Shown here: positions 7,466-58,131 of the stretch, in pieces
Numbering within the stretch: position 1 is the first letter of the stretch
Layout: every line of letters starts with the position of its first letter
Source of the DNA: Candidatus Peregrinibacteria bacterium Greene0416_19
GTDB taxonomy: Bacteria > Patescibacteriota > Gracilibacteria > Peribacterales > Peribacteraceae
Direction: 5' to 3'
Assembly (NCBI GenBank): GCA_007375735.1
Contig: VMEW01000001.1
Span: forward strand, 11,831-75,830
DNA: 64,000 bases
The notes under the pieces: generated by a model
What the model was told of the DNA's origin: nothing
The model's input: the letters and a program-made list of their open reading frames with translations, nothing else
The model's database searches: none
Made by a program: the position numbers and the translations under genes

Positions 7466-7492
7466 GAGTTGTGAGCGTCGCGGCTGTTATAC

Positions 7493-7727
7493 ATGCCCCC
7501 TCCCCCGGCCCCTCCCCCTCGGCCTCGACCCTCTGGGGTCTCGGCCTGGGAGAGGGGAAGGTTAATCTTTCAATGCCGCACGGCGGAGCCGTGCTGCTGA
7601 TTGCAATAATGAACAATTGATCGTAGCAGCACGGCTCCGCCGTGCGGCATTCACCTACGCCTTGCCCTCTCCCAGGCCGTAGGCCCGCAGGCTGAGGCCG
7701 AGGGGGAGGGGTCGGGGGAGGGGGCAT
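7493..7727. repeat. 235-bp nested palindromic element (ATGCCCCC-terminus family)
   Basis: Outer 34-bp arms 7493-7526 / 7694-7727 have 1 mismatch. The middle arms contain CGGCCTGGGAGAGGG. Inner perfect 27-bp arms are 7572-7598 / 7625-7651. Confidence 0.9.
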
Positions 7728-7763
7728 GGAACAAGGCGGGCAAAAACTCGCTACAATCCTCAG

Positions 7764-47262: not shown

Positions 47263-48273
47263 TTACAAATCCAGTTCATGCTTTATGACGACAGCAGCTT
47301 TTTCGATCGTGGTGACACTTGGATGAACGGTATCCCAGCTGAGCGTCTCGACTTCATTTCCGAAGGTGTCGTAGAGATCGATCACCGTGAAGCCCGCCTT
47401 CCCAGCGATCGATCGCAGCTTCGGTCGCGTCGGAGCGTGCAGTTCCTTGTCCGGCCAGATAACGAAGAGCTTCGGCATGGATGCCGGCAACGCCGACGCG
47501 AAGGCGCTGAGTGTGCGCGCGTATCGGTCGATGTTCTCCGGGCGGACGCTCTCCTGTTCGGGATGTTCCTTGAATTCCTTCTGTTGCGCGCGCAGGTTGC
47601 TCCTTTCCGTCCGCGCGCTCACGAGTTTCTTCACCGTTCGGTAGAAGGCGCTGTGGAGGTCCAACCAGCAGCGGCCTGGAACCAGGCCCAGGATACCGGT
47701 TTCGATGGGGTTGCAGCGTCGCGGTTCCCGCTGCCATCCGGCTGGACGCAGGTTCCCCTCGTCGTCTACCACGCCGGGGTCCATGTCGTGCAGGTCATTC
47801 CAATAGAAGACGATGATGAGCGCCGCCGGATCGAGCGATCGTATCTTCGTATCGTAGGCAGAAACTTCCTGCGAGAGGGTATAACCCGGCACCCCCGCGT
47901 TCAGGACGTTGTATTGATGGGCCAGGAGCCCGCTCAGTTTTGCGGACAACGTCTGATCATCCGCGACGCCGTAGCCGAACGAGATGGAGTCGCCGAGAAC
48001 AGCGATGGTTCGTTTCTGAGGATCGATCTCTGGCGAACGGAAGCCCAGGGAATTTGTGGTGACGATGCGGCGGTATGCGCGCTCGTGGACGTTTGGACGC
48101 AGCTCGTAACTGATTCGCGGATCGGCGCTCGTGCGGAAAATCTGCGGCGGGCCGGGATGACCTTTCTCCACTCCGGTGACACGGAGTGACACTTCGCCGA
48201 CAACGAAGAAGCCGATGACGGTGCCGAAGAGGAAGGAGAGGTTGATGAGCCGATCGCGCGTCAGGGATCGCAT
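47263..48273 (-). CDS. membrane-anchored SGNH/GDSL hydrolase family protein
   Basis: N-terminal TM helix, block I AVLGDSISFGYG and block V WDTVHPS. Confidence 0.8.
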   Translation of the reverse strand: MRSLTRDRLINLSFLFGTVIGFFVVGEVSLRVTGVEKGHPGPPQIFRTSADPRISYELRPNVHERAYRRIVTTNSLGFRSPEIDPQKRTIAVLGDSISFGYGVADDQTLSAKLSGLLAHQYNVLNAGVPGYTLSQEVSAYDTKIRSLDPAALIIVFYWNDLHDMDPGVVDDEGNLRPAGWQREPRRCNPIETGILGLVPGRCWLDLHSAFYRTVKKLVSARTERSNLRAQQKEFKEHPEQESVRPENIDRYARTLSAFASALPASMPKLFVIWPDKELHAPTRPKLRSIAGKAGFTVIDLYDTFGNEVETLSWDTVHPSVTTIEKAAVVIKHELDL

Positions 48274-48316
48274 CGCGGATACCGTAGCGGTGAGACCGGT
48301 GCTCGGCTACTGGTCG

Positions 48317-48435
48317 GTGCCCCCTCCCTGCGTCCCTCCCCTCGCTTCGCTGGGGGAGGGAAAGAAATATTTTCTTTGCTTACCTTCCCTCTCCCAGGCC
48401 GAAGGCCGAGGGGGAGGGACGCAGGGAGGGGGCAT
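48317..48435. repeat. 119-bp palindromic element (ATGCCCCC-terminus family)
   Basis: GCCCCCTCCCTGCGTCCCTCCCCTCG (left arm) pairs with CGAGGGGGAGGGACGCAGGGAGGGGGC (right arm). The inner word CCCTCTCCCAGGCCG is shared with 7665-7680. Confidence 0.85.
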
Positions 48436-48535
48436 GTTTCCACGCCGCCAGACTTCGAAAAACCCTCCCCGTCGACTCGACCTTTTCCCCTTCGCTACGC
48501 CCAAAGAGTATAGTGGCTAGAGTATTTTCCCCGCT

Positions 48536-50074
48536 ATGCGTCGCTCCATCTCCATCGCACTCCTCACCCTCCTCCCGGCATCAGCCGCCTTCGCCGCGTT
48601 TCCAGATGTTCCATCCGAGTATCCGTATGCGGAGGGGATCGCCTACGTCCAAGAGCAGAACATCGTATCCGGCTATCCGGACGGGACGTACCTCCCCAAC
48701 CGCATGGTCAACCGGGCGGAGTTCACCAAGATCATCATTGCATCCCGCTATGCAAAACCAGCCATCGATGCCTGTCTGCGGCAACACCCGGATGCCCTCC
48801 GCTTCCGGGACGTGCCGGTGGGGAGCTGGTATGCGCCGTTCCTGTGCATGGCGGTGACGGGGAAGATCATTGGCGGTTACCCCGACGGCACCTTCCGCGG
48901 CGCCGGCACCATCAACTTCGCAGAAGCAGCCAAGATCTTCGCAGGCGGTTTCGCGCTCAGGACCGATGACAGCCTGGGCACCGTGTACGGCGAATCGGTG
49001 TGGTACCGGCCGTCCACCATGAAGTTGGCCCAAATGGACGCGATCCCTTCGACGGTCGACCGGAATGATCACCCCGTCACGCGGGGCGAGATGGCGGAAA
49101 TGATCTACCGACTGCAGACGGGGCAGAAGTCCACACCCTCCGAATCGTCGCGCACGGTGAGCGACCCCGCGGGATTCTCCTTCACGTACCCTGCCGACAT
49201 TTTTCTGGTTGTTCCCTCCTCCGATACCGTGGCAGTGGGAGCCGATGTGAGCAAGGAGCGGAAGGTGAATGGTATCCGCCTTGTCCACGCGGCGCCGGTG
49301 GAGCATTGCGATCTGTCGGGATTGCCGGAGCACTGCACGCCGCTCACGCGGGACAGCACGATCGGCTTCTTCGTGGTGCCGGAATTCTACTCGGTTCTCA
49401 AGAACTTGGCACAGCCCTGGCAGCGCGAAACCGAAATGCAGGTCGGCGGCGTCACCGGATTCACCTTCACGTCGGGCGCCGAGGGGGAGGGAAACGTCTA
49501 CATCTTCCTGCCGCTCACCGACCGCAGCACACTCATGATCGTGCGCTCGTTCATCAGCGAGGACACGAATTTGGCATACAAGGGCGTAAGCGGTTTCCTG
49601 CCGATCGCGGAGCAGGAGAAGGTCAGCAAGCAGGTACTGGACTCCCTCACCCTCCAGAGCGCCCCGGCGGGTGCCACAACGCAGGTGAAGCTCTTCTTCT
49701 TCAGTGAGAAGGATCGCAAAGAGGCGACCTACCAGGCGAGTTTTCCCGTGACCCGCACCACCCCCAAATCGGAGCGTATTGCCGATGCCGCGCTCCGGCT
49801 CCTCTTCGCCGGGCCAACGACAGACGAACAGAATCAGGGCGCCCGGACCATGCCGGAACTGTCCGCACTCGCATCGCCCTACATCAGCGTCTCCGTGAAG
49901 GACGGCACCGCGTACGTGAATTTCCACAAGGAGGCGCTGGAGCACCTGAACGCGGTCGCCGGCATCCAGCATATGGTCAAGGCGCCGATTGAGGCCACGC
50001 TCAAGCAGTTCCCGACGATCAAGCAGGTGCAGTATGCGATTGATGGGAAGGTGTATACGGAGTGGGGGGCCTAG
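48536..50074 (+). CDS. secreted cell-wall protein with three SLH repeats and a C-terminal GerMN domain
   Basis: Signal peptide (LLTLLPASAAFA). SLH repeats begin FPDVPSEYPYAEGIAYV, FRDVPVGSWYAPF and VWYRPST. The C-terminus LLFAGPTTDEQNQG...VNFHKE...IDGKVY is GerMN-like. Confidence 0.8.
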   Translation: MRRSISIALLTLLPASAAFAAFPDVPSEYPYAEGIAYVQEQNIVSGYPDGTYLPNRMVNRAEFTKIIIASRYAKPAIDACLRQHPDALRFRDVPVGSWYAPFLCMAVTGKIIGGYPDGTFRGAGTINFAEAAKIFAGGFALRTDDSLGTVYGESVWYRPSTMKLAQMDAIPSTVDRNDHPVTRGEMAEMIYRLQTGQKSTPSESSRTVSDPAGFSFTYPADIFLVVPSSDTVAVGADVSKERKVNGIRLVHAAPVEHCDLSGLPEHCTPLTRDSTIGFFVVPEFYSVLKNLAQPWQRETEMQVGGVTGFTFTSGAEGEGNVYIFLPLTDRSTLMIVRSFISEDTNLAYKGVSGFLPIAEQEKVSKQVLDSLTLQSAPAGATTQVKLFFFSEKDRKEATYQASFPVTRTTPKSERIADAALRLLFAGPTTDEQNQGARTMPELSALASPYISVSVKDGTAYVNFHKEALEHLNAVAGIQHMVKAPIEATLKQFPTIKQVQYAIDGKVYTEWGA

Positions 50075-50156
50075 GGGGCGTTCCACACCAAGATGGAACG
50101 GACATTTTGATGTACCCAAGCCAAGAATCTTCGTTGTTCAACAAATAAAGAACCCC

Positions 50157-50691
50157 GAGAGCGGGTTTTCTACCCGCGGATGGCGAAGGATAACGGCATG
50201 TCCCAACGCCACCCGACCCAAAACGATTGTGTCATGTTCGTGACGACGAACGTGGCCCGTCGCCTGCCCCTCTTCGCCGATCCGGCCTGTGCCCGCGAAG
50301 CAGTCGAGACACTCTATCGTGTCCAGGCGATGTATCCGTTCTTCCTCTTCGGCTTTGTCATTATGCCGGATCATTGCCATCTTCTCCTGAAGGTTCCACC
50401 ACCAGCAGAAATTTCGAGCATCATTGGTTCCTATAAGCGGGCCGTCAGCCACAATCTCGTCCGCGGTCCCATATGGCAGCCACGATTCCATATGAAGATT
50501 CCGGGCGATTGCTATGCAGCGCTGAGATACATTCACCTGAATTCCGTGAGGGCGAAATTGACCGAGAATCCGGAGGAGTACCTGTGGTCATCAGCATCGG
50601 GGCGGTGGGACGTGCAGAGCTTAGAAGGCCCGTAGGGACATGGCGCGGGTGGAATCTTGCACCTTACAACCGCGGGTAGAAAACCCGCTCT
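50157..50691. mobile_element. RAYT cassette: Y1 transposase gene flanked by inverted REPs
   Basis: GAGAGCGGGTTTTCTACCCGCGG (50157-50179) and CCGCGGGTAGAAAACCCGCTCT (50670-50691) are inverted copies bracketing the ORF. Each unit is a GCGGGT/ACCCGC hairpin. Confidence 0.85.
50180..50635 (+). CDS. REP-associated tyrosine transposase (IS200/IS605 Y1 family)
   Basis: HUH motif in VIMPDHCHLLL and catalytic Tyr context ALRYIHLNSVRAKL...EEYLWSS. Confidence 0.85.
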   Translation: MAKDNGMSQRHPTQNDCVMFVTTNVARRLPLFADPACAREAVETLYRVQAMYPFFLFGFVIMPDHCHLLLKVPPPAEISSIIGSYKRAVSHNLVRGPIWQPRFHMKIPGDCYAALRYIHLNSVRAKLTENPEEYLWSSASGRWDVQSLEGP

Positions 50692-50718
50692 TAGATATAT
50701 TTGTTATTTGATTATTTT

Positions 50719-52479
50719 TTAGTCTAATTCAAATTTCTTGAGGTATGTCTCCTGTTCCCGCAGCACCTCCGCCGGCATATCCTTCTTGTTCAGCAAGAAA
50801 CTTCCCAACACCAAATAATCCATATGCGTGTTCAGGAAACAATTCAGGGCGTCTTTCGGCGACTCGACGATGGGCTCGCCTCGCACATTGAACGATGTGT
50901 TGATGATGACGGGGCACTGCGTTTTCTCCTCGAACTTCTTGATCAGGTCGTAGTAGCGCGGGTTCTGGTCACGGCGGATGGTCTGGATTCTCGCTGAACC
51001 GTCGACGTGGGTGACAGCCGGGATCTGCTCGCGGCGGTGGGGGAGGGTGTCGGCCACGAGGAGCATGTAGGGGCTCTCGACGTTCAACGCGAACCATTCG
51101 CCGACTTTCTCCTCCAGCACCGTCGGCGCGAAGGGACGGAAGGACTCGCGGAATTTTATTTTGAGGTTCACCTTCTGCCAATTCTCCCGGTTCCGCGCGT
51201 CCGCGATGATGGAGCGGTTGCCAAGCGACCGAGGGCCGTACTCCATCCGGCCCTGGAACCATCCGATGACATTGTCTCCTTCGAGGAGAGAGGCAACGGA
51301 ATCGAAGAGTGCACCATCGTCGAGCCGCTCGTACGGAAGGTTCTGCTGCCTGAGCAAGCTCTCGATCTCCTCAGTCGAGTATTCGTTCCCCAGGAATGCA
51401 TGCTCCATCTTCTTCGTTCGTGCGCCGTTGAACACACGATGCCAGATGAGGAGTGCCCCGCCGAGTGCCCCGCCGGCGTCTCCTGACGCAGGCTGAATGA
51501 AGATGTCCTTGAAGAGGCCTGCTTTGAGGATTTTCCCATTCGCGACGCAATTGAGCGCCACGCCACCGGCAAGGCACAGGTAATCGCTCGGGCATAGCTC
51601 CTTCGCGCGCATCACGATCTTCATCATCGCCTGCTCGGTGATTTCCTGCAGCGACCGCGCCACGTCTTTGTGGAACTGCGTCAGTTCCTTCTCCGGCTTG
51701 CGGGCGGGCTGTCCGAAGAGCTTCTCGATCGCCCGACCGGTCATCGTCATGCCGTACTCGTAGTTGAAGTACTTCATGTTGAGACGGAAACTGCCGTCTT
51801 CCTTCAACTCGATGAGCTCACGCATCTCTCTCATGTACGTCGGTTGTCCGTACGGCGCGAGCCCCATTACCTTGTACTCGGCACTATTCACCTTAAATCC
51901 CAGATAATAGGTGATGGCGGAGTAGAGGAGACCGAGTGAATGCGGAAAGTGAATTTCCTCTTTCAGCGCAAGGCTCGTTCCCTCGCCCTTCCCGATCGTC
52001 GTCGTCGCCCACTCGCCCACGCCGTCGACCGTCACCACCGTCGCCTGCGGAAAGCCGGAGACGTAGTAGGCCGATGCGGCATGCGATTCGTGGTGTTGGC
52101 AGTAGTAGATCGGTCCCGTGTAGCCGAGTTCCTTCTTGATGTTCTGCGGGATCCACAACTTTTTGGTCATCCATTCTTGCATTGCTGCCTGATACGACCG
52201 CAACCCACGCGGCCATACCTTCATGTAGGTCGGGATGATGCGGTCGAAGAACTTCAGGAGCGGCTTCTCGTAGAAACCGACGGCGTCAATGTCTTTGATC
52301 GTGATGCCGGCGAACTTGAGTGCCTGCTCAACCGCGCGCTTTGGGAGCGCATCGTCATGTTTCTTCCGCGTGTACCGCTCCTCGTGCGCCGCGAAGATCA
52401 CCTCGCCGTCTTTCACCAGGCACGCGGCACTGTCATGGTAGTAGCAGGAGAGGCCGAAGATGTAGATGGGTTTGGGCAT
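50719..52479 (-). CDS. carbamoyltransferase (NodU/CmcH/SxtI family)
   Basis: 586 aa. N-terminal IFGLSCYYHDSAACLV motif and two-domain NodU length. Confidence 0.9.
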   Translation of the reverse strand: MPKPIYIFGLSCYYHDSAACLVKDGEVIFAAHEERYTRKKHDDALPKRAVEQALKFAGITIKDIDAVGFYEKPLLKFFDRIIPTYMKVWPRGLRSYQAAMQEWMTKKLWIPQNIKKELGYTGPIYYCQHHESHAASAYYVSGFPQATVVTVDGVGEWATTTIGKGEGTSLALKEEIHFPHSLGLLYSAITYYLGFKVNSAEYKVMGLAPYGQPTYMREMRELIELKEDGSFRLNMKYFNYEYGMTMTGRAIEKLFGQPARKPEKELTQFHKDVARSLQEITEQAMMKIVMRAKELCPSDYLCLAGGVALNCVANGKILKAGLFKDIFIQPASGDAGGALGGALLIWHRVFNGARTKKMEHAFLGNEYSTEEIESLLRQQNLPYERLDDGALFDSVASLLEGDNVIGWFQGRMEYGPRSLGNRSIIADARNRENWQKVNLKIKFRESFRPFAPTVLEEKVGEWFALNVESPYMLLVADTLPHRREQIPAVTHVDGSARIQTIRRDQNPRYYDLIKKFEEKTQCPVIINTSFNVRGEPIVESPKDALNCFLNTHMDYLVLGSFLLNKKDMPAEVLREQETYLKKFELD

Positions 52480-52480
52480 G

Positions 52481-52711
52481 TTAGAACGGCCGTTTCATCG
52501 TTTCGGCCGTCTCCACTGTTGCCGGGATCCAGAACGACGCTGTCGGTTGCGGACGACGGACGAGTGCCACAATCTTCATGATGATCGCGTAGATCCCGAA
52601 CCCCACGATCCACAGGATCGTCAGGATGATGAAGCTCATGAGCTTCCCGAGTGCGTGGGAGAACTCCATCCATGCATCGTAGAACCAGGAGAGGGGCGGG
52701 GGGAGGCGCAT
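52481..52711 (-). CDS. small 2-TM membrane protein in the SxtJ position
   Basis: 76 aa from ATG 52711, which overlaps the upstream TGA by 1 nt. Only 1 nt separates its stop from the carbamoyltransferase start. SxtJ identity is inferred from position and TM content only. Confidence 0.5.
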   Translation of the reverse strand: MRLPPPLSWFYDAWMEFSHALGKLMSFIILTILWIVGFGIYAIIMKIVALVRRPQPTASFWIPATVETAETMKRPF

Positions 52712-52869
52712 CAAAAAACGGTGTAAATGAACGGTGCCAGTGCCGACCCCTGTGCGAAGACGAGGATGAGGCCCAGGAGCGTGATGAGCAAGATCATCGG
52801 CAGCAGCCACCATTTCTTGCGCACCCGCATGAACTGCCAGAGCTCGGCGAAGATGGCGAGTTTGGACAT
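52711..52869 (-). CDS. DUF5989 / SxtK-like mini-protein
   Basis: 52 aa: MSKLAIFAELWQFMRVRKKWWLLPMILLITLLGLILVFAQGSALAPFIYTVF. The ELW.F...RKK.WL.P and GSA.APFIYT.F patterns match my recollection of DUF5989. Confidence 0.7.
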   Translation of the reverse strand: MSKLAIFAELWQFMRVRKKWWLLPMILLITLLGLILVFAQGSALAPFIYTVF

Positions 52870-52873
52870 GCAG

Positions 52874-54055
52874 CTATAGTAGGGATGCACACACGAATCT
52901 CGCAATCAATTCCCCCGCAACCCGGTGCCCTTCCTCATTCCAGTGTCCGGCTCCCGGACCAGTCTGCTCGAAGCCGTGGAAGGTGAGCGTCCGTTCCTCG
53001 GTCAGTTTCTGCATCATTGGTGCCAGTGTGAGCGTCGGAAAGCCGTACTTTTTACCTGTCCGTTCAATCCTCCGTTCCGGATAAAACAGATCTGTCACGC
53101 CGAGTTCCCGCGCTGCACGCTCACGCACCGCCGGATCCGGGTGGACCTGTATGCCGTTGCTCAGGGTGACGACCGCGAATCCGGCGCCGCTCTCCCGCAC
53201 GTCGATCTGCATTCCTCCCAGGATTTGCTCGGTCAATTCCCACGCTTCCCTCCATTCTCCGGTTCCCGGTTCCCGGTAGACCTCATCGTCCAGCCCGGTC
53301 TCATGGCCCGCAATGTCCGTGCCCGACCCGGTTGATGCGGTGATGGCTGCATTCCGTCCGATGATTTTCTTCGCATGGTACAGCACTTGCAGTGCACGGG
53401 AATGGTGAACCAGAGACTGGAAGAAGCGGGAGCTGAACGAGAGCTGCCGTCGGAATGCCGGATTCTCCCGGAATGAAAAATCGGGATTGAGACTCTCTCC
53501 ATCCAGCCGGAAGTATGGCTTCATCCTGTTCCCCTCGAGCGCGAAGGAGTTGTTGCGGATGTCATTCCCCGTCGTCATCGCGAGGAGCACGATGTCCGGA
53601 GCGAACTGACGCACCACTTGCCGGAAGTGAATGCGCTCCTGCGCGGTGCCGAAGCCGGATACGCCGAAGTTAAGCACTTCGATCTTCTCCCGGTTTAGGC
53701 GGTCACAGGAACGCAGTGCATGCTCCATTACCGCTGGGAATGTCTTCTCCAGCTCCACCTGTCGTGCCTCGGTATAAGAATCTCCCAGGACTGCGATCCG
53801 GACAGTTCCTTCCGGTTTCCCGACCCTGCGATCCTTGTCCCGCATGCCGTGGCGGTTGATGCGCACGTACGCTCGCCCCTCTTCCGTCTGCCACCCGGCT
53901 GCTCCGGGCCGCAGGCTGAAGCCGGTCCATTCGTCGGCGCGCGTCCAGAGGGGGTAGGAGGTGCCGGTGAGGCGGAAGGTGACTTCGACGAGGAGGAAGC
54001 CCACGAGCAACGATCCCGCAAGAAGGCCCAAGGGAACGACAACGTTCTTTCGCAC
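52874..54055 (-). CDS. membrane-anchored SGNH-like hydrolase/acyl-esterase (paralogous architecture to 47263..48273)
   Basis: GTG 54055 lies 7 nt after TAGTCT (complement of 54063-54068). TM helix followed by block I AVLGDSYTEA. The track start 54253 reads through a palindromic repeat. Confidence 0.7.
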   Translation of the reverse strand: MRKNVVVPLGLLAGSLLVGFLLVEVTFRLTGTSYPLWTRADEWTGFSLRPGAAGWQTEEGRAYVRINRHGMRDKDRRVGKPEGTVRIAVLGDSYTEARQVELEKTFPAVMEHALRSCDRLNREKIEVLNFGVSGFGTAQERIHFRQVVRQFAPDIVLLAMTTGNDIRNNSFALEGNRMKPYFRLDGESLNPDFSFRENPAFRRQLSFSSRFFQSLVHHSRALQVLYHAKKIIGRNAAITASTGSGTDIAGHETGLDDEVYREPGTGEWREAWELTEQILGGMQIDVRESGAGFAVVTLSNGIQVHPDPAVRERAARELGVTDLFYPERRIERTGKKYGFPTLTLAPMMQKLTEERTLTFHGFEQTGPGAGHWNEEGHRVAGELIARFVCASLL

Positions 54056-54082
54056 GAGTGTGAGACTACCATTTCTAGGCCC

Positions 54083-54253
54083 ATGCCCCCACCCCCGACC
54101 CCTCCCCCTCCCTCCGGTCGGGAGAGGGGAGAGACGTCTGAGGTGTATTCCCACAGCTTCACAAAGATTATGGAGAGAAGCAGGATGCCTTCTTCCTGAA
54201 TGGAGCTCCCCTCTCCCGACGATAGGAGGGGGAGGGGTCGGGGGTGGGGGCAT
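54083..54253. repeat. 171-bp palindromic element (ATGCCCCC-terminus family) in a divergent promoter region
   Basis: Perfect 29-bp arms ATGCCCCCACCCCCGACCCCTCCCCCTCC (54083-54111) / 54225-54253. Inner 14-bp arms 54118-54131 / 54206-54219. Confidence 0.9.
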
Positions 54254-54320
54254 GAATCAGGAGATCACAACCTTCGATCGACGCTTGTGCTTGGGCAAGT
54301 CGCTCTCCATACTTTCCCCA

Positions 54321-56289: not shown

Positions 56290-58131
56290 ATGTGCGGCAT
56301 AGCGGGATACACCGGCATCGATGAGCGGGAGTACCTCCAAAAAATGACCGACCGGCTGTTCCACCGCGGCCCGGATGACGGCGGGGAATACCATTCCGCG
56401 GAAGATTGCGTGCATCTTGGCATGCGTCGACTGGCGATTGTGGATATCAAGGATGGCGTGCAGCCCATGACGACGGCCGACGGCCGGTTCTGCATCGTGT
56501 ATAACGGTGAAATATTCAATGCGCCGGAACTGCGGAAAGAATTGGAATCCCAGGGCAGAGCATTCCGCACCGACCACTCGGATACCGAGGTCATCCTCCA
56601 GCTCTATGCGCGCGACGGCGCCATGGCACCCGGCCGGCTCAACGGCATGTTCGCATTCGCCATCTACGATCGCGATCGGCGCACCCTCTTCTGCGCACGG
56701 GATCAGGCCGGCATCAAGCCATTCTTCTACAGTGTCGGTCCGGACGGACGGTTCTCCTTTGCATCAGAAATCAAAGCTTTGTTGTTGCTTCCCTGGGTCG
56801 AGCGAGCGATCGACCGCCAGGCGGTGGCGGACTTCCTCAGCTTCCAGGCCATACCTGCGCCGCGAACTATCTACAGCGCCATCCGCAAGCTGCCGGCGGG
56901 TGCCAGCCTGATCTACTCCCTTGCCGATCACTCCGTTTCCGTTCTGCCATACTGGACACCGCCGGTGGACCTGTACCGCCGTGATCCCCTGCGCGCCGAT
57001 CCACGCGAGTATCCACGCATCATCCGGGGCGCCTTCGAGCGGGCGGTGAATCGTTGGTCCACGAGCGACGTACCGATTGCCTATTCGCTCTCCGGCGGTA
57101 TCGATTCCTCCGCCGTCGTCGGTGCGAGCGCACATATTCTGAAAGGTCCGCTCGCGACGTACACGCTCGGCTTCACCGATAGCCCGGATCTGGATGAGCG
57201 CGCGCCTGCGCGGGAGGTGGCAGCGATGTGGAACACGGATCACCATGAAATCCTGCTGACGGAGCAGGATCTTCTCGGCTCGCTCGATGCGATGGCGGAT
57301 GCGCTCGATGAGCCGTACGCCGGAGGCCTGCCCTCCTGGTTCGTGTTTCGGGAGATGGGCAGGCACGTGAAAGTGGCCATGACCGGCACGGGTGGCGACG
57401 AGCTCTTCGGGAATTACGGGAAATGGCTGGCGCACGAGTGGGGCGGCAAGCGCCTCACGCGCATCCGCACGTTCCTCCGTAACGGCGGCAGCATGCGCCA
57501 CCTCCTCGCCTCTCCCCACGGAGCCCTCCACTACCCGTACTTCACCGATGCCGCCAAACAATCGCTCCTCACCCCGGCATTCGCATCGGGACTCTCCCCC
57601 TCCACAGCATTGCTCGAACACTTGTGGCGCGCGAGCCCCGATGCTGATCCCAGGAGCAGGGTTGCCTTCATGGACTTCCAACTGCAGCTGCCCGAGGAAT
57701 TTCTCTTCATGACGGACAGGTTCTCCATGGCGCACTCAGTGGAAGCCCGCACACCGCTCCTCGACCGGGAACTCGTCGAGACGGTGTTCCGCATCCCCCC
57801 GGAAGCGCGTACGACGAGCGGATCCCTCAAGCGGCTCTTCATCGCCGCCGTCGCCGACCTGCTTCCGCCGGCTGTCCTCTCCTCGCGCAAGCGGGGGTTC
57901 GTCCTGCCCGCCGGCCGGTGGCTCCGGGGGCGGCTCCGGCCGCTCGTGGAGGATCTGTGCAATCCTTCTTCCCTGCGGACGCAGGGCATTTTTCAGGAGT
58001 CCGTCTTCGAGCAGATCGTCCGTCCGCATCTCTCGGGCGAACGAAACCTCGACTGGCAACTCTGGACGATCCTGAGTTTCCAGCTGTGGTACGACCACTT
58101 CATTTCTCCGTCGCGGGTTTCCGTGCGTTGA
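56290..58131 (+). CDS. asparagine synthase (glutamine-hydrolysing)-like amidotransferase
   Basis: MCGIAG N-terminus (Cys2 nucleophile) and PP-loop SLSGGIDSS. 613 aa from ATG 56290. Confidence 0.9.
   Translation: MCGIAGYTGIDEREYLQKMTDRLFHRGPDDGGEYHSAEDCVHLGMRRLAIVDIKDGVQPMTTADGRFCIVYNGEIFNAPELRKELESQGRAFRTDHSDTEVILQLYARDGAMAPGRLNGMFAFAIYDRDRRTLFCARDQAGIKPFFYSVGPDGRFSFASEIKALLLLPWVERAIDRQAVADFLSFQAIPAPRTIYSAIRKLPAGASLIYSLADHSVSVLPYWTPPVDLYRRDPLRADPREYPRIIRGAFERAVNRWSTSDVPIAYSLSGGIDSSAVVGASAHILKGPLATYTLGFTDSPDLDERAPAREVAAMWNTDHHEILLTEQDLLGSLDAMADALDEPYAGGLPSWFVFREMGRHVKVAMTGTGGDELFGNYGKWLAHEWGGKRLTRIRTFLRNGGSMRHLLASPHGALHYPYFTDAAKQSLLTPAFASGLSPSTALLEHLWRASPDADPRSRVAFMDFQLQLPEEFLFMTDRFSMAHSVEARTPLLDRELVETVFRIPPEARTTSGSLKRLFIAAVADLLPPAVLSSRKRGFVLPAGRWLRGRLRPLVEDLCNPSSLRTQGIFQESVFEQIVRPHLSGERNLDWQLWTILSFQLWYDHFISPSRVSVR

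Follow-up and report, generated by a model that had tools for sequence, protein, structure and literature searches.

A Peribacteria version of the carbamoyltransferase, SxtJ and DUF5989 gene set, with two membrane-anchored SGNH proteins, in a glycan island

O-carbamoyltransferases of the family that includes NodU, CmcH and TobZ form carbamoyl-AMP from carbamoyl phosphate and ATP and then transfer the carbamoyl group onto a hydroxyl. To our knowledge, NodU/NolO, CmcH, TobZ, NovN and GdmN all act alone, as soluble proteins. In the saxitoxin cluster, sxtI, sxtJ, sxtK and sxtL (1839, 405, 165 and 1281 bp) have the consecutive accessions ABI75099-75102 (PMC2679770, PMC2684587). The sxtL gene directly follows sxtK, and its product is a GDSL lipase that has been proposed to decarbamoylate (PMC2679770, PMC2885083). 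The genes sxtJ, sxtK and sxtL are also grouped in the suomilide gene cluster (PMC10157211). The trio of carbamoyltransferase, SxtJ and SxtK has been recognised since the saxitoxin cluster and has Pfam families of its own; the roles of the two mini-proteins and of the GDSL partner have never been shown, and reviews still class SxtJ and SxtK as being of unknown role. Here we describe a 64,000-nucleotide stretch of the genome of Candidatus Peregrinibacteria bacterium Greene0416_19 (contig VMEW01000001.1), called the window in what follows. It carries the version found in Peribacteria, members of the candidate phyla radiation (CPR), of a widespread module of carbamoyltransferase (CT), SxtJ and SxtK/DUF5989, with or without a GDSL/SGNH esterase. 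The reading that we favor, by a narrow balance of confidence, is that the genes form a self-contained O-carbamoylation module in which a CT tethered by the mini-proteins carbamoylates the precursor of a surface glycan, and outward-facing SGNH enzymes edit the glycan.

The genes of the window on which this reading bears are listed here. All positions refer to the whole 64,000-nt stretch, and the trio stands for CT, SxtJ and DUF5989.

52874..54055, minus strand: SGNH1, an N-terminally membrane-anchored SGNH/GDSL protein of 393 aa, with a GTG start at 54055, in the position of SxtL
52711..52869, minus strand: DUF5989 mini-protein of 52 aa (Pfam PF19451), in the position of SxtK
52481..52711, minus strand: short SxtJ-family mini-protein of 76 aa (Pfam PF19588)
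50719..52479, minus strand: predicted O-carbamoyltransferase of the NodU/CmcH/TobZ type, 586 aa, with Carbam_trans_N and Carbam_trans_C domains
47263..48273, minus strand: SGNH2, a membrane-anchored paralogue of SGNH1, 336 aa (Lipase_GDSL_2, 40.6 bits)

An earlier note on this DNA had described the first four genes as one minus-strand operon with junctions of 4, -1 and 1 nt. The open reading frames (ORFs) bear this out, as do direct reading of the sequence, which gives a 4-nt gap, a 1-nt overlap (TGATG) and a 1-nt gap, and the independent gene calls of the source contig, which yield the identical four proteins of 393, 52, 76 and 586 aa. The nearest relatives of all four proteins are in Candidatus Peribacteria/Peregrinibacteria, with identities of at most 90% for DUF5989 and 66-78% for the CT, and the window copy is itself an ordinary member of the module. 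Two longer frames were rejected. A frame for SGNH1 from ATG 54253 has an extension that crosses a palindromic repeat, and it was set aside because the homologues and the source gene call also begin near the GTG. A 110-aa frame for SxtJ from 52813 adds 34 residues that overlap the DUF5989 gene and have no homologue support, and it was set aside because the relatives begin at the same methionine as the 76-aa form.

The CT matches both Pfam domains of its family, Carbam_trans_N with 288.7 bits and Carbam_trans_C with 248 bits, and its residues 12-566 align to the solved structures of NovN, GdmN and TobZ with E values from 1e-104 to 1e-75. Both the metal-binding HHxxH motif (CQHHESHAAS) and the GPRxLGxRS motif (GPRSLGNRS) are present; the corresponding motif of SxtI is cited as GPRALGRS (bioRxiv 10.64898/2026.06.11.731795). 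The score against the NodU equivalog model is 162, far below the cut-off of 1000 bits. Domains, alignment and motifs predict that the protein is an O-carbamoyltransferase of the NodU/CmcH/TobZ type.

The 52-aa peptide, identified in the earlier note as DUF5989, clears the cut-off of that Pfam family easily in a hidden Markov model (HMM) search (81.9 bits against 27, E=3.3e-23, model positions 2-49 of 49). It has an amphipathic N-terminus, an RKKWW motif, a single transmembrane span and a conserved C-terminal tail, and its family comprises 6150 homologous clusters. With its single span, its length of about 50 aa and the SxtJ and CT genes beside its own, it agrees with SxtK in size (165 bp gene) and in position. 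The 76-aa protein passes the SxtJ model marginally, with 24.6 bits where 24.4 are required, and the match covers positions 51-93 of the 99 in the model. Iterative searching connects it with the gene that stands between those for CT and DUF5989 in 79 loci, and with full-length SxtJ genes that score 32-35 bits, and together with the marginal HMM pass this link sustains the assignment of the peptide in the SxtJ position to the SxtJ family. Full-length SxtJ proteins are about 125-145 aa long and have an N-terminal half with two hydrophobic segments. The 76-aa protein does not have this architecture; it corresponds to the C-terminal module only, which consists of an amphipathic stretch that includes a conserved tryptophan (W14 in the window protein), a single span and a tail that carries a conserved SYW and ends in QF. 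Such short forms make up a subfamily of their own, with 94 representative clusters at 50% identity. The earlier description of this protein as a 2-TM (two-transmembrane) peptide did not hold. Hydropathy analysis finds one hydrophobic segment each in DUF5989 and short SxtJ and none in the CT, and AlphaFold2 with 47 homologues models short SxtJ as one continuous helix (residues 7-51, mean pLDDT 88). A literature search returned no functional study of either mini-protein and none on DUF5989, PF19451 or PF19588, in agreement with the earlier statement that their function is undescribed.

Members of the DUF5989 family are present in many species. A pattern scan with one genome per species gave at least 558 confirmed relatives among the 600 matches listed. 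The best 80 DUF5989-seeded loci were surveyed by calling ORFs and searching them iteratively with the window proteins, and in 72 of the 80 the CT, SxtJ and DUF5989 genes are contiguous and on the same strand. Contig ends truncate most of the others, and true orphans number four. Trio loci are found in Peribacteria, Gemmatimonadota, Acidobacteriota, Ignavibacteria/Melioribacter, KSB1, Omnitrophota, Nitrospirae, Calditrichaeota and Proteobacteria. This synteny confirms that both mini-proteins recur beside a carbamoyltransferase, as the earlier note had stated. The order within the trio is DUF5989-SxtJ-CT in Peribacteria, with the short SxtJ. It is CT-SxtJ-DUF5989, with the long SxtJ, in Gemmatimonadota, Acidobacteriota, Ignavibacteria, KSB1, Omnitrophota, Calditrichaeota and Proteobacteria, and CT-DUF5989-SxtJ in two Nitrospirae-type loci (L053 and L064). 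Where SGNH genes are adjacent, the arrangements are as follows.

SGNH-DUF5989-SxtJ-CT: the window, L006, L008, L011, L012 and L088
DUF5989-SGNH-SxtJ-CT-SGNH2: L089
CT-SxtJ-DUF5989-SGNH: L049, L062, L067, L068, L070, L072, L074 and L079; the commonest order, often with 4-nt spacing
GT4::SxtJ-CT-DUF5989-X-SGNH: L087
SGNH-SxtJ-DUF5989-CT: Ensifer canadensis plasmid pT173d (L093), annotated as GDSL-type esterase, hypothetical protein, DUF5989 and carbamoyltransferase
Same four-gene set: Sinorhizobium meliloti 1021 pSymB, 482.2-486.4 kb of the record (L092)

The gene order is shuffled and the set is kept. On the rhizobial megaplasmids the set consists of a GDSL/SGNH protein, a 143-aa SxtJ-like protein, DUF5989 and a 610-aa carbamoyltransferase, and it adjoins genes for a two-component system, a GT4 glycosyltransferase and a flippase. 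DUF5989 matched 30 Sinorhizobium plasmids. A search of the literature for the S. meliloti pSymB locus found nothing relevant.

Some loci of the survey depart from these arrangements. Two adjacent copies of DUF5989 are present in L006 (9234-9566), L013, L020 and L085. Orphan DUF5989 genes in L042 (5406-5561; a KSB1 genome) and L081 (864-1019; a Cytophagia genome) have neither CT nor SxtJ within reach, and these two loci share a conserved arrangement of SIS-domain, DUF5989, BatA-VWA and HflX genes. When the orphan loci L040, L042, L077 and L081 were searched for alternative partner enzymes, only the SIS-DUF5989-BatA arrangement was found, and that twice. One contig, L009, is labelled 'Methanobacteriota archaeon' and has a layout and scores identical to those of the Candidatus Peribacter contig L008; it is probably a mis-binned or mislabelled contig of a metagenome-assembled genome.

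The SGNH protein is the only recurrent fourth partner of the trio. If SGNH ORFs of at least 250 aa are counted, 30 of the 80 loci have one no more than 600 nt from the trio. The same is true of 21 of the 46 evaluable loci, defined as those with a complete trio flanked on each side by 1.5 kb or more. SGNH genes occur at 0.146 per kb beside the trio and at 0.016 per kb in the farther flanks, an enrichment of about 9-fold. A Pfam tally of the 121 nearest neighbours gave 26 matches to Lipase_GDSL_2, 11 to ALGX and at most four to every other family. Most trio-adjacent SGNH genes are co-directional with the trio (27 of 35), and the products of 33 of the 35 have an N-terminal hydrophobic anchor that ends in a conserved glutamate. 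The earlier note had treated the SGNH gene as newly fused to the trio in an operon. The operonic link stands, but not the notion of an addition to an sxt-type trio, since CT-SxtJ-DUF5989-SGNH is the sxtI-J-K-L order and sxtL already follows sxtK; the SGNH gene is the usual fourth member of the set. SGNH1 resembles SxtL in being a GDSL/SGNH protein of about 400 aa encoded beside the sxtK/DUF5989 gene. A homologue search seeded with the cyanobacterial member P0113 had no Sxt-named protein, SxtL included, among its best 120 matches.

The operon lies in a glycan island, as had been claimed. Domain hits in the surrounding 22 kb include Epimerase_2, a CTP_transf_3 cytidylyltransferase, a methyltransferase, an AsnB-like Asn_synthase and NAD-epimerases, and further genes encode GT2, two GT4 enzymes, a DegT aminotransferase and a protein with an SLH domain.

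In the mechanism that we propose, the CT would be a soluble cytoplasmic enzyme, and the two mini-proteins would keep it at the inner membrane face. Each of these single-pass proteins would have its N-terminal amphipathic helix inside, one span, and its short conserved tail outside. The tethered CT would act on a sugar intermediate of the surface glycan that is membrane-bound (lipid-linked) and carbamoylate it. Once the glycan is exported, SGNH1 and SGNH2, facing outward, would remove or reposition carbamoyl or acetyl ester-type substituents on the same glycan, a role that would parallel the decarbamoylation proposed for SxtL. The orientation of SxtJ is suggested by a natural fusion in locus L087 (6001-11361), where protein P0318 consists of a GT4 glycosyltransferase with a C-terminal SxtJ short module. 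The gene for this fusion lies directly 5' of the CT gene, which implies that the SxtJ module has its N-terminus on the cytoplasmic side, and the fusion shows the module serving as the membrane tail of a cytoplasmic sugar enzyme. After it come the CT, DUF5989, a 295-aa protein of unknown kind and, on the opposite strand, the SGNH gene; the locus lies inside a glycan cluster of the UDP-ManNAcA type, and the organism has 39% GC. Long SxtJ has an even number of extra spans, which is consistent with the orientation suggested by the fusion.

Several points weigh against this proposal. Many SxtJ homologues have C-terminal tails rich in lysine and arginine, and under the positive-inside rule such charged tails would argue for a cytoplasmic location, in conflict with the topology based on the fusion. 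The anchoring role of the mini-proteins is argued from topology, synteny and one fusion protein. Equivalence to sxtI-J-K-L rests on Pfam membership, size and position, and SGNH1 is a putative counterpart of SxtL by position. In groups other than Peribacteria, many trios stand outside glycan loci, and because of these trios and of the alkaloid acceptor of the saxitoxin pathway, the acceptor suggested here is one drawn from context. The sequence of SGNH1 is equally compatible with a hydrolase and a transferase. About half of the trio loci (25 of the 46 evaluable) have no adjacent SGNH gene. Conversely, five of eight sampled loci of the SGNH1 family have no trio (L003, L004, L005, L090 and L091), and the three that have it are all Peribacteria-like (L006, L088 and L089). 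The family is thus a frequent partner, not an obligate one. Finally, SGNH1 of the window is 51% identical to a trio-less deltaproteobacterial homologue (L003) and 41-43% identical to several trio-linked ones from Peribacteria (L008, L011 and L012).

The last three of these points also speak for an alternative in which the SGNH genes serve independent glycan tailoring, for example as O-acetyl esterases or as partners of the AsnB-like amidotransferase, have no more in common with the trio than the island and a transcript, and only the trio is a functional unit. We regard this as doubtful, with a minor share of the probability. Since the identities of SGNH1 do not follow taxonomy and those of the CT do, separate histories of the two genes, or horizontal transfer of the SGNH gene, are suggested, and the trio-less loci together with the closer trio-less homologue show that the family has a function independent of carbamoylation. 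An AsnB-like amidotransferase gene (Asn_synthase) adjoins SGNH1-family genes in L003, L088, L090 and L091, and in the window one lies at 56290-58131, 2 kb from SGNH1; these are glycan loci both with and without the trio, and the recurrence points to a second functional partner, possibly a more general one. Independence of the SGNH genes would leave unexplained their enrichment beside the trio. This enrichment is seen in six phyla or more and with the genes in various orders; most of the SGNH genes share the strand of the trio, and often the gap is only 4 nt. No other neighbour family recurs, including around trios that stand outside glycan loci, and the placement of sxtL after sxtK and the grouping of sxtJ, K and L in the suomilide cluster likewise argue for a joint role.

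The properties of SGNH1 itself bear on what its domain may do. It scores 26.5 bits against Lipase_GDSL_2, under the cut-off of 32.9, and a profile search of the PDB gave only weak matches to block I. An alignment of 59 homologues shows invariant G91-D92-S93, N129-F130-G131, N164-D165 and H371, and two invariant cysteines, C117 and C389. SGNH blocks I (GDS), II (G), III (GxND) and V (H) are all present, as is the SGNH fold; there is no aspartate at position -3 of the catalytic histidine (AGHWN). The AlphaFold2 model (pLDDT 93, pTM 0.91) shows the SGNH core together with an N-terminal transmembrane helix (residues 2-30), a small beta-sheet and, at about residues 194-290, a large insertion made of helices. 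The N-terminal anchor and the two invariant cysteines suggest that the modelled SGNH domain is probably extracytoplasmic. In a Foldseek search of the PDB the model matched CgnD best (E=1.6e-8), followed by TesA, Axe2 and carbohydrate esterases; AlgX, AlgJ and PatB were not among the top matches. An AlgX/PatB-like protein was therefore rejected as the closest fold. The order of catalytic residues, with the serine in the N-terminal GDS block and the histidine near the C-terminus, is that of classical SGNH enzymes. SGNH1 has no match to the ALGX Pfam family (PF16822) at E<=1, although the C-terminal third of its relatives, with the histidine block, matches the ALGX model at about positions 22-133 with 19-34 bits (cut-off 26.5). 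The earlier comparison of this protein with AlgX and AlgJ is accordingly a weak one.

An outward SGNH domain would also suit a trans-membrane carbamoyl relay, in which the CT loads a carrier, the mini-proteins pass the carbamoyl group across, and an SGNH transferase places it on the exported glycan. This is the kind of membrane-associated machine that the earlier note had suggested. Such a relay would resemble O-acetylation by AlgI/AlgJ/AlgX or PatA/PatB without an MBOAT protein, and no MBOAT or AT3 gene was found among the called genes of the 22-kb neighbourhood. The C-terminal tails of both mini-proteins, predicted to be outside, are strongly conserved; in L089 the SGNH gene stands between DUF5989 and SxtJ; and many SGNH partners outside Peribacteria have a D-x-H-[W/L/F]-[S/N] histidine block, some of those from other phyla passing the ALGX cut-off with 32.1 and 33.9 bits. 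We nevertheless consider a relay unlikely. Carbamoyl export is without precedent, two single-pass peptides are an improbable conduit, and TobZ, NovN and GdmN transfer directly to the hydroxyl of the final acceptor. The frequent absence of an SGNH neighbour and the work of the SGNH family without the trio also count against it, as does a fold search that leads to classical hydrolases.

A further alternative is that the mini-proteins are assembly or stability factors of the CT, or couple it to an exporter or flippase and so tie carbamoylation to export of the product. MATE exporters near sxtI-L in the saxitoxin cluster, where the acceptor is a soluble small molecule, would fit such coupling, as would the oligosaccharide flippase gene near the Ensifer cassette and the lone DUF5989 genes of L042 and L081, each flanked by SIS-domain and BatA genes. 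No conserved exporter gene was found among the nearest neighbours of the trio, and orphans account for only four of the 80 DUF5989 loci, so that we give this explanation a low probability. A trans-envelope complex of CT, mini-proteins and SGNH protein, coupling carbamoyl activation in the cytoplasm to modification or editing of the glycan outside with a carbamoyl-serine SGNH intermediate as the transfer species, appears improbable as well; it would, if true, be a new class of glycan tailoring, an MBOAT-free counterpart of the O-acetylation relays, and would give a reason for the co-occurrence of sxtJ, K and L with sxtI.

Tethered carbamoylation followed by outward editing, which remains our preferred reading, assigns a part to SGNH2 as well. 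SGNH2 is 27% identical to SGNH1 (E=7e-9). Its orthologues (44-53% identity) are encoded just 3' of the CT in L006-L009, L011-L015, L022 and L089, and in Peribacteria the gene normally follows the CT directly or comes after a methyltransferase gene. In the window SGNH2 is separated from the CT by a Y1-transposase element and by a gene for an SLH and Germane domain protein (48536-50074); it probably belongs to the cassette as a fifth member that has been displaced. The SLH/Germane protein, which adjoins the glycan island of this CPR genome, fits an S-layer, and the island may build the polymer or glycan that anchors this layer. Two further elements flank the genes.

54082..54254, no strand assigned: G-rich palindromic element with arms at 54082-54111 and 54225-54254, perfect over 30 nt, between SGNH1 and a divergent epimerase gene
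50138..50711, plus strand: Y1 (IS200/IS605- or RAYT-like) element with a transposase gene at 50180-50635 (PF01797, Y1_Tnp)

The Y1 element has 45-nt inverted repeats that are 78% complementary and is inserted 8 nt after the stop codon of the CT. The palindromic element is present in three copies in the window (7492-7728, 48318-48436 and 54082-54254). It is a nested palindrome whose terminal arms, CATGCCCCC...CCCCTCCCCCTC and GAGGGGGAGGGG...GGGGGCATG, match perfectly for 24-30 nt around a core that varies, and five arm matches were found in the window where none were expected. Two copies lie 27-45 nt 5' of the start codons of SGNH1 and SGNH2. The element resembles a miniature inverted-repeat transposable element or a repetitive extragenic palindrome, or is possibly regulatory. 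The earlier note had placed a leaderless promoter with a TAGTCT box before the operon. The hexamer is present at 54068-54063, 7 nt before GTG 54055, where it adjoins the palindromic element. It overlaps a GTCTCAC sequence that is shared, on the minus strand, upstream of SGNH1 (54056-54068) and SGNH2 (48289-48296) and that in both paralogues is found between the start codon and the palindromic element; this sequence may be part of the repeat element or a common regulatory site. A scan for the sigma-70 consensus found nothing 5' of 54055, and counts across the region were no higher than in shuffles. On these grounds the leaderless sigma-70 promoter was rejected as unsupported.

The module is mobile and is found in at least several hundred species genomes from many phyla, mostly outside toxin pathways. 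Because the set is also present in genetically tractable rhizobia (S. meliloti 1021 pSymB), it can be tested by experiment. Resolving its function would clarify the last step of saxitoxin biosynthesis and the decarbamoylated variants of that pathway, as well as the carbamoylation of surface glycans in bacteria.

Among described systems, the crocagin hydrolase CgnD (PDB 8a2n) is the best structural match of SGNH1, with TM-scores of 0.49 by query length and 0.62 by target length, and its gene cluster also holds a carbamoyltransferase, CgnI (PMC10070186). Unlike SGNH1, CgnD is a soluble, slow leader peptidase of a pathway for ribosomally made peptides with post-translational modifications (RiPPs) and has no membrane anchor; no SxtJ or DUF5989 partners have been reported for it. 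With 14% identity and moderate TM-scores, it was not adopted as a functional analogue. AlgI/AlgJ/AlgF/AlgX and PatA/PatB (OatA) share with the window an anchored, outward SGNH-type domain combined with membrane proteins in a glycan locus, and the histidine block of relatives of SGNH1 weakly matches the AlgX family. They differ in having an MBOAT or AT3 partner, and AlgX has the order D-x-H...S, in contrast to the nucleophile of SGNH1 in its N-terminal GDS block. NovN, GdmN, TobZ, NodU, NolO and CmcH have the two-domain architecture and the HHxxH and GPRSLGNRS motifs of the window CT, which aligns over its full length to NovN, GdmN and TobZ. In contrast to NodU/NolO, CmcH, TobZ, NovN and GdmN, the clade of the window CT is nearly always encoded with two membrane mini-proteins. 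The saxitoxin genes sxtI-L are the closest in content, with an O-carbamoyltransferase, a membrane protein of the SxtJ family, a protein of about 50 aa (SxtK size, DUF5989) and a GDSL/SGNH protein of about 400 aa. The window differs from them in its order (SGNH-DUF5989-SxtJ-CT), in its 76-aa SxtJ, in which the N-terminal half with the two hydrophobic segments of the full-length protein is missing, in a cassette that includes a second SGNH paralogue, and in its context, which is the surface-glycan island of a CPR bacterium and not an alkaloid pathway. The module is known, if mechanistically unsolved, and what is new in this locus is its rearranged layout with a short SxtJ and two SGNH genes.

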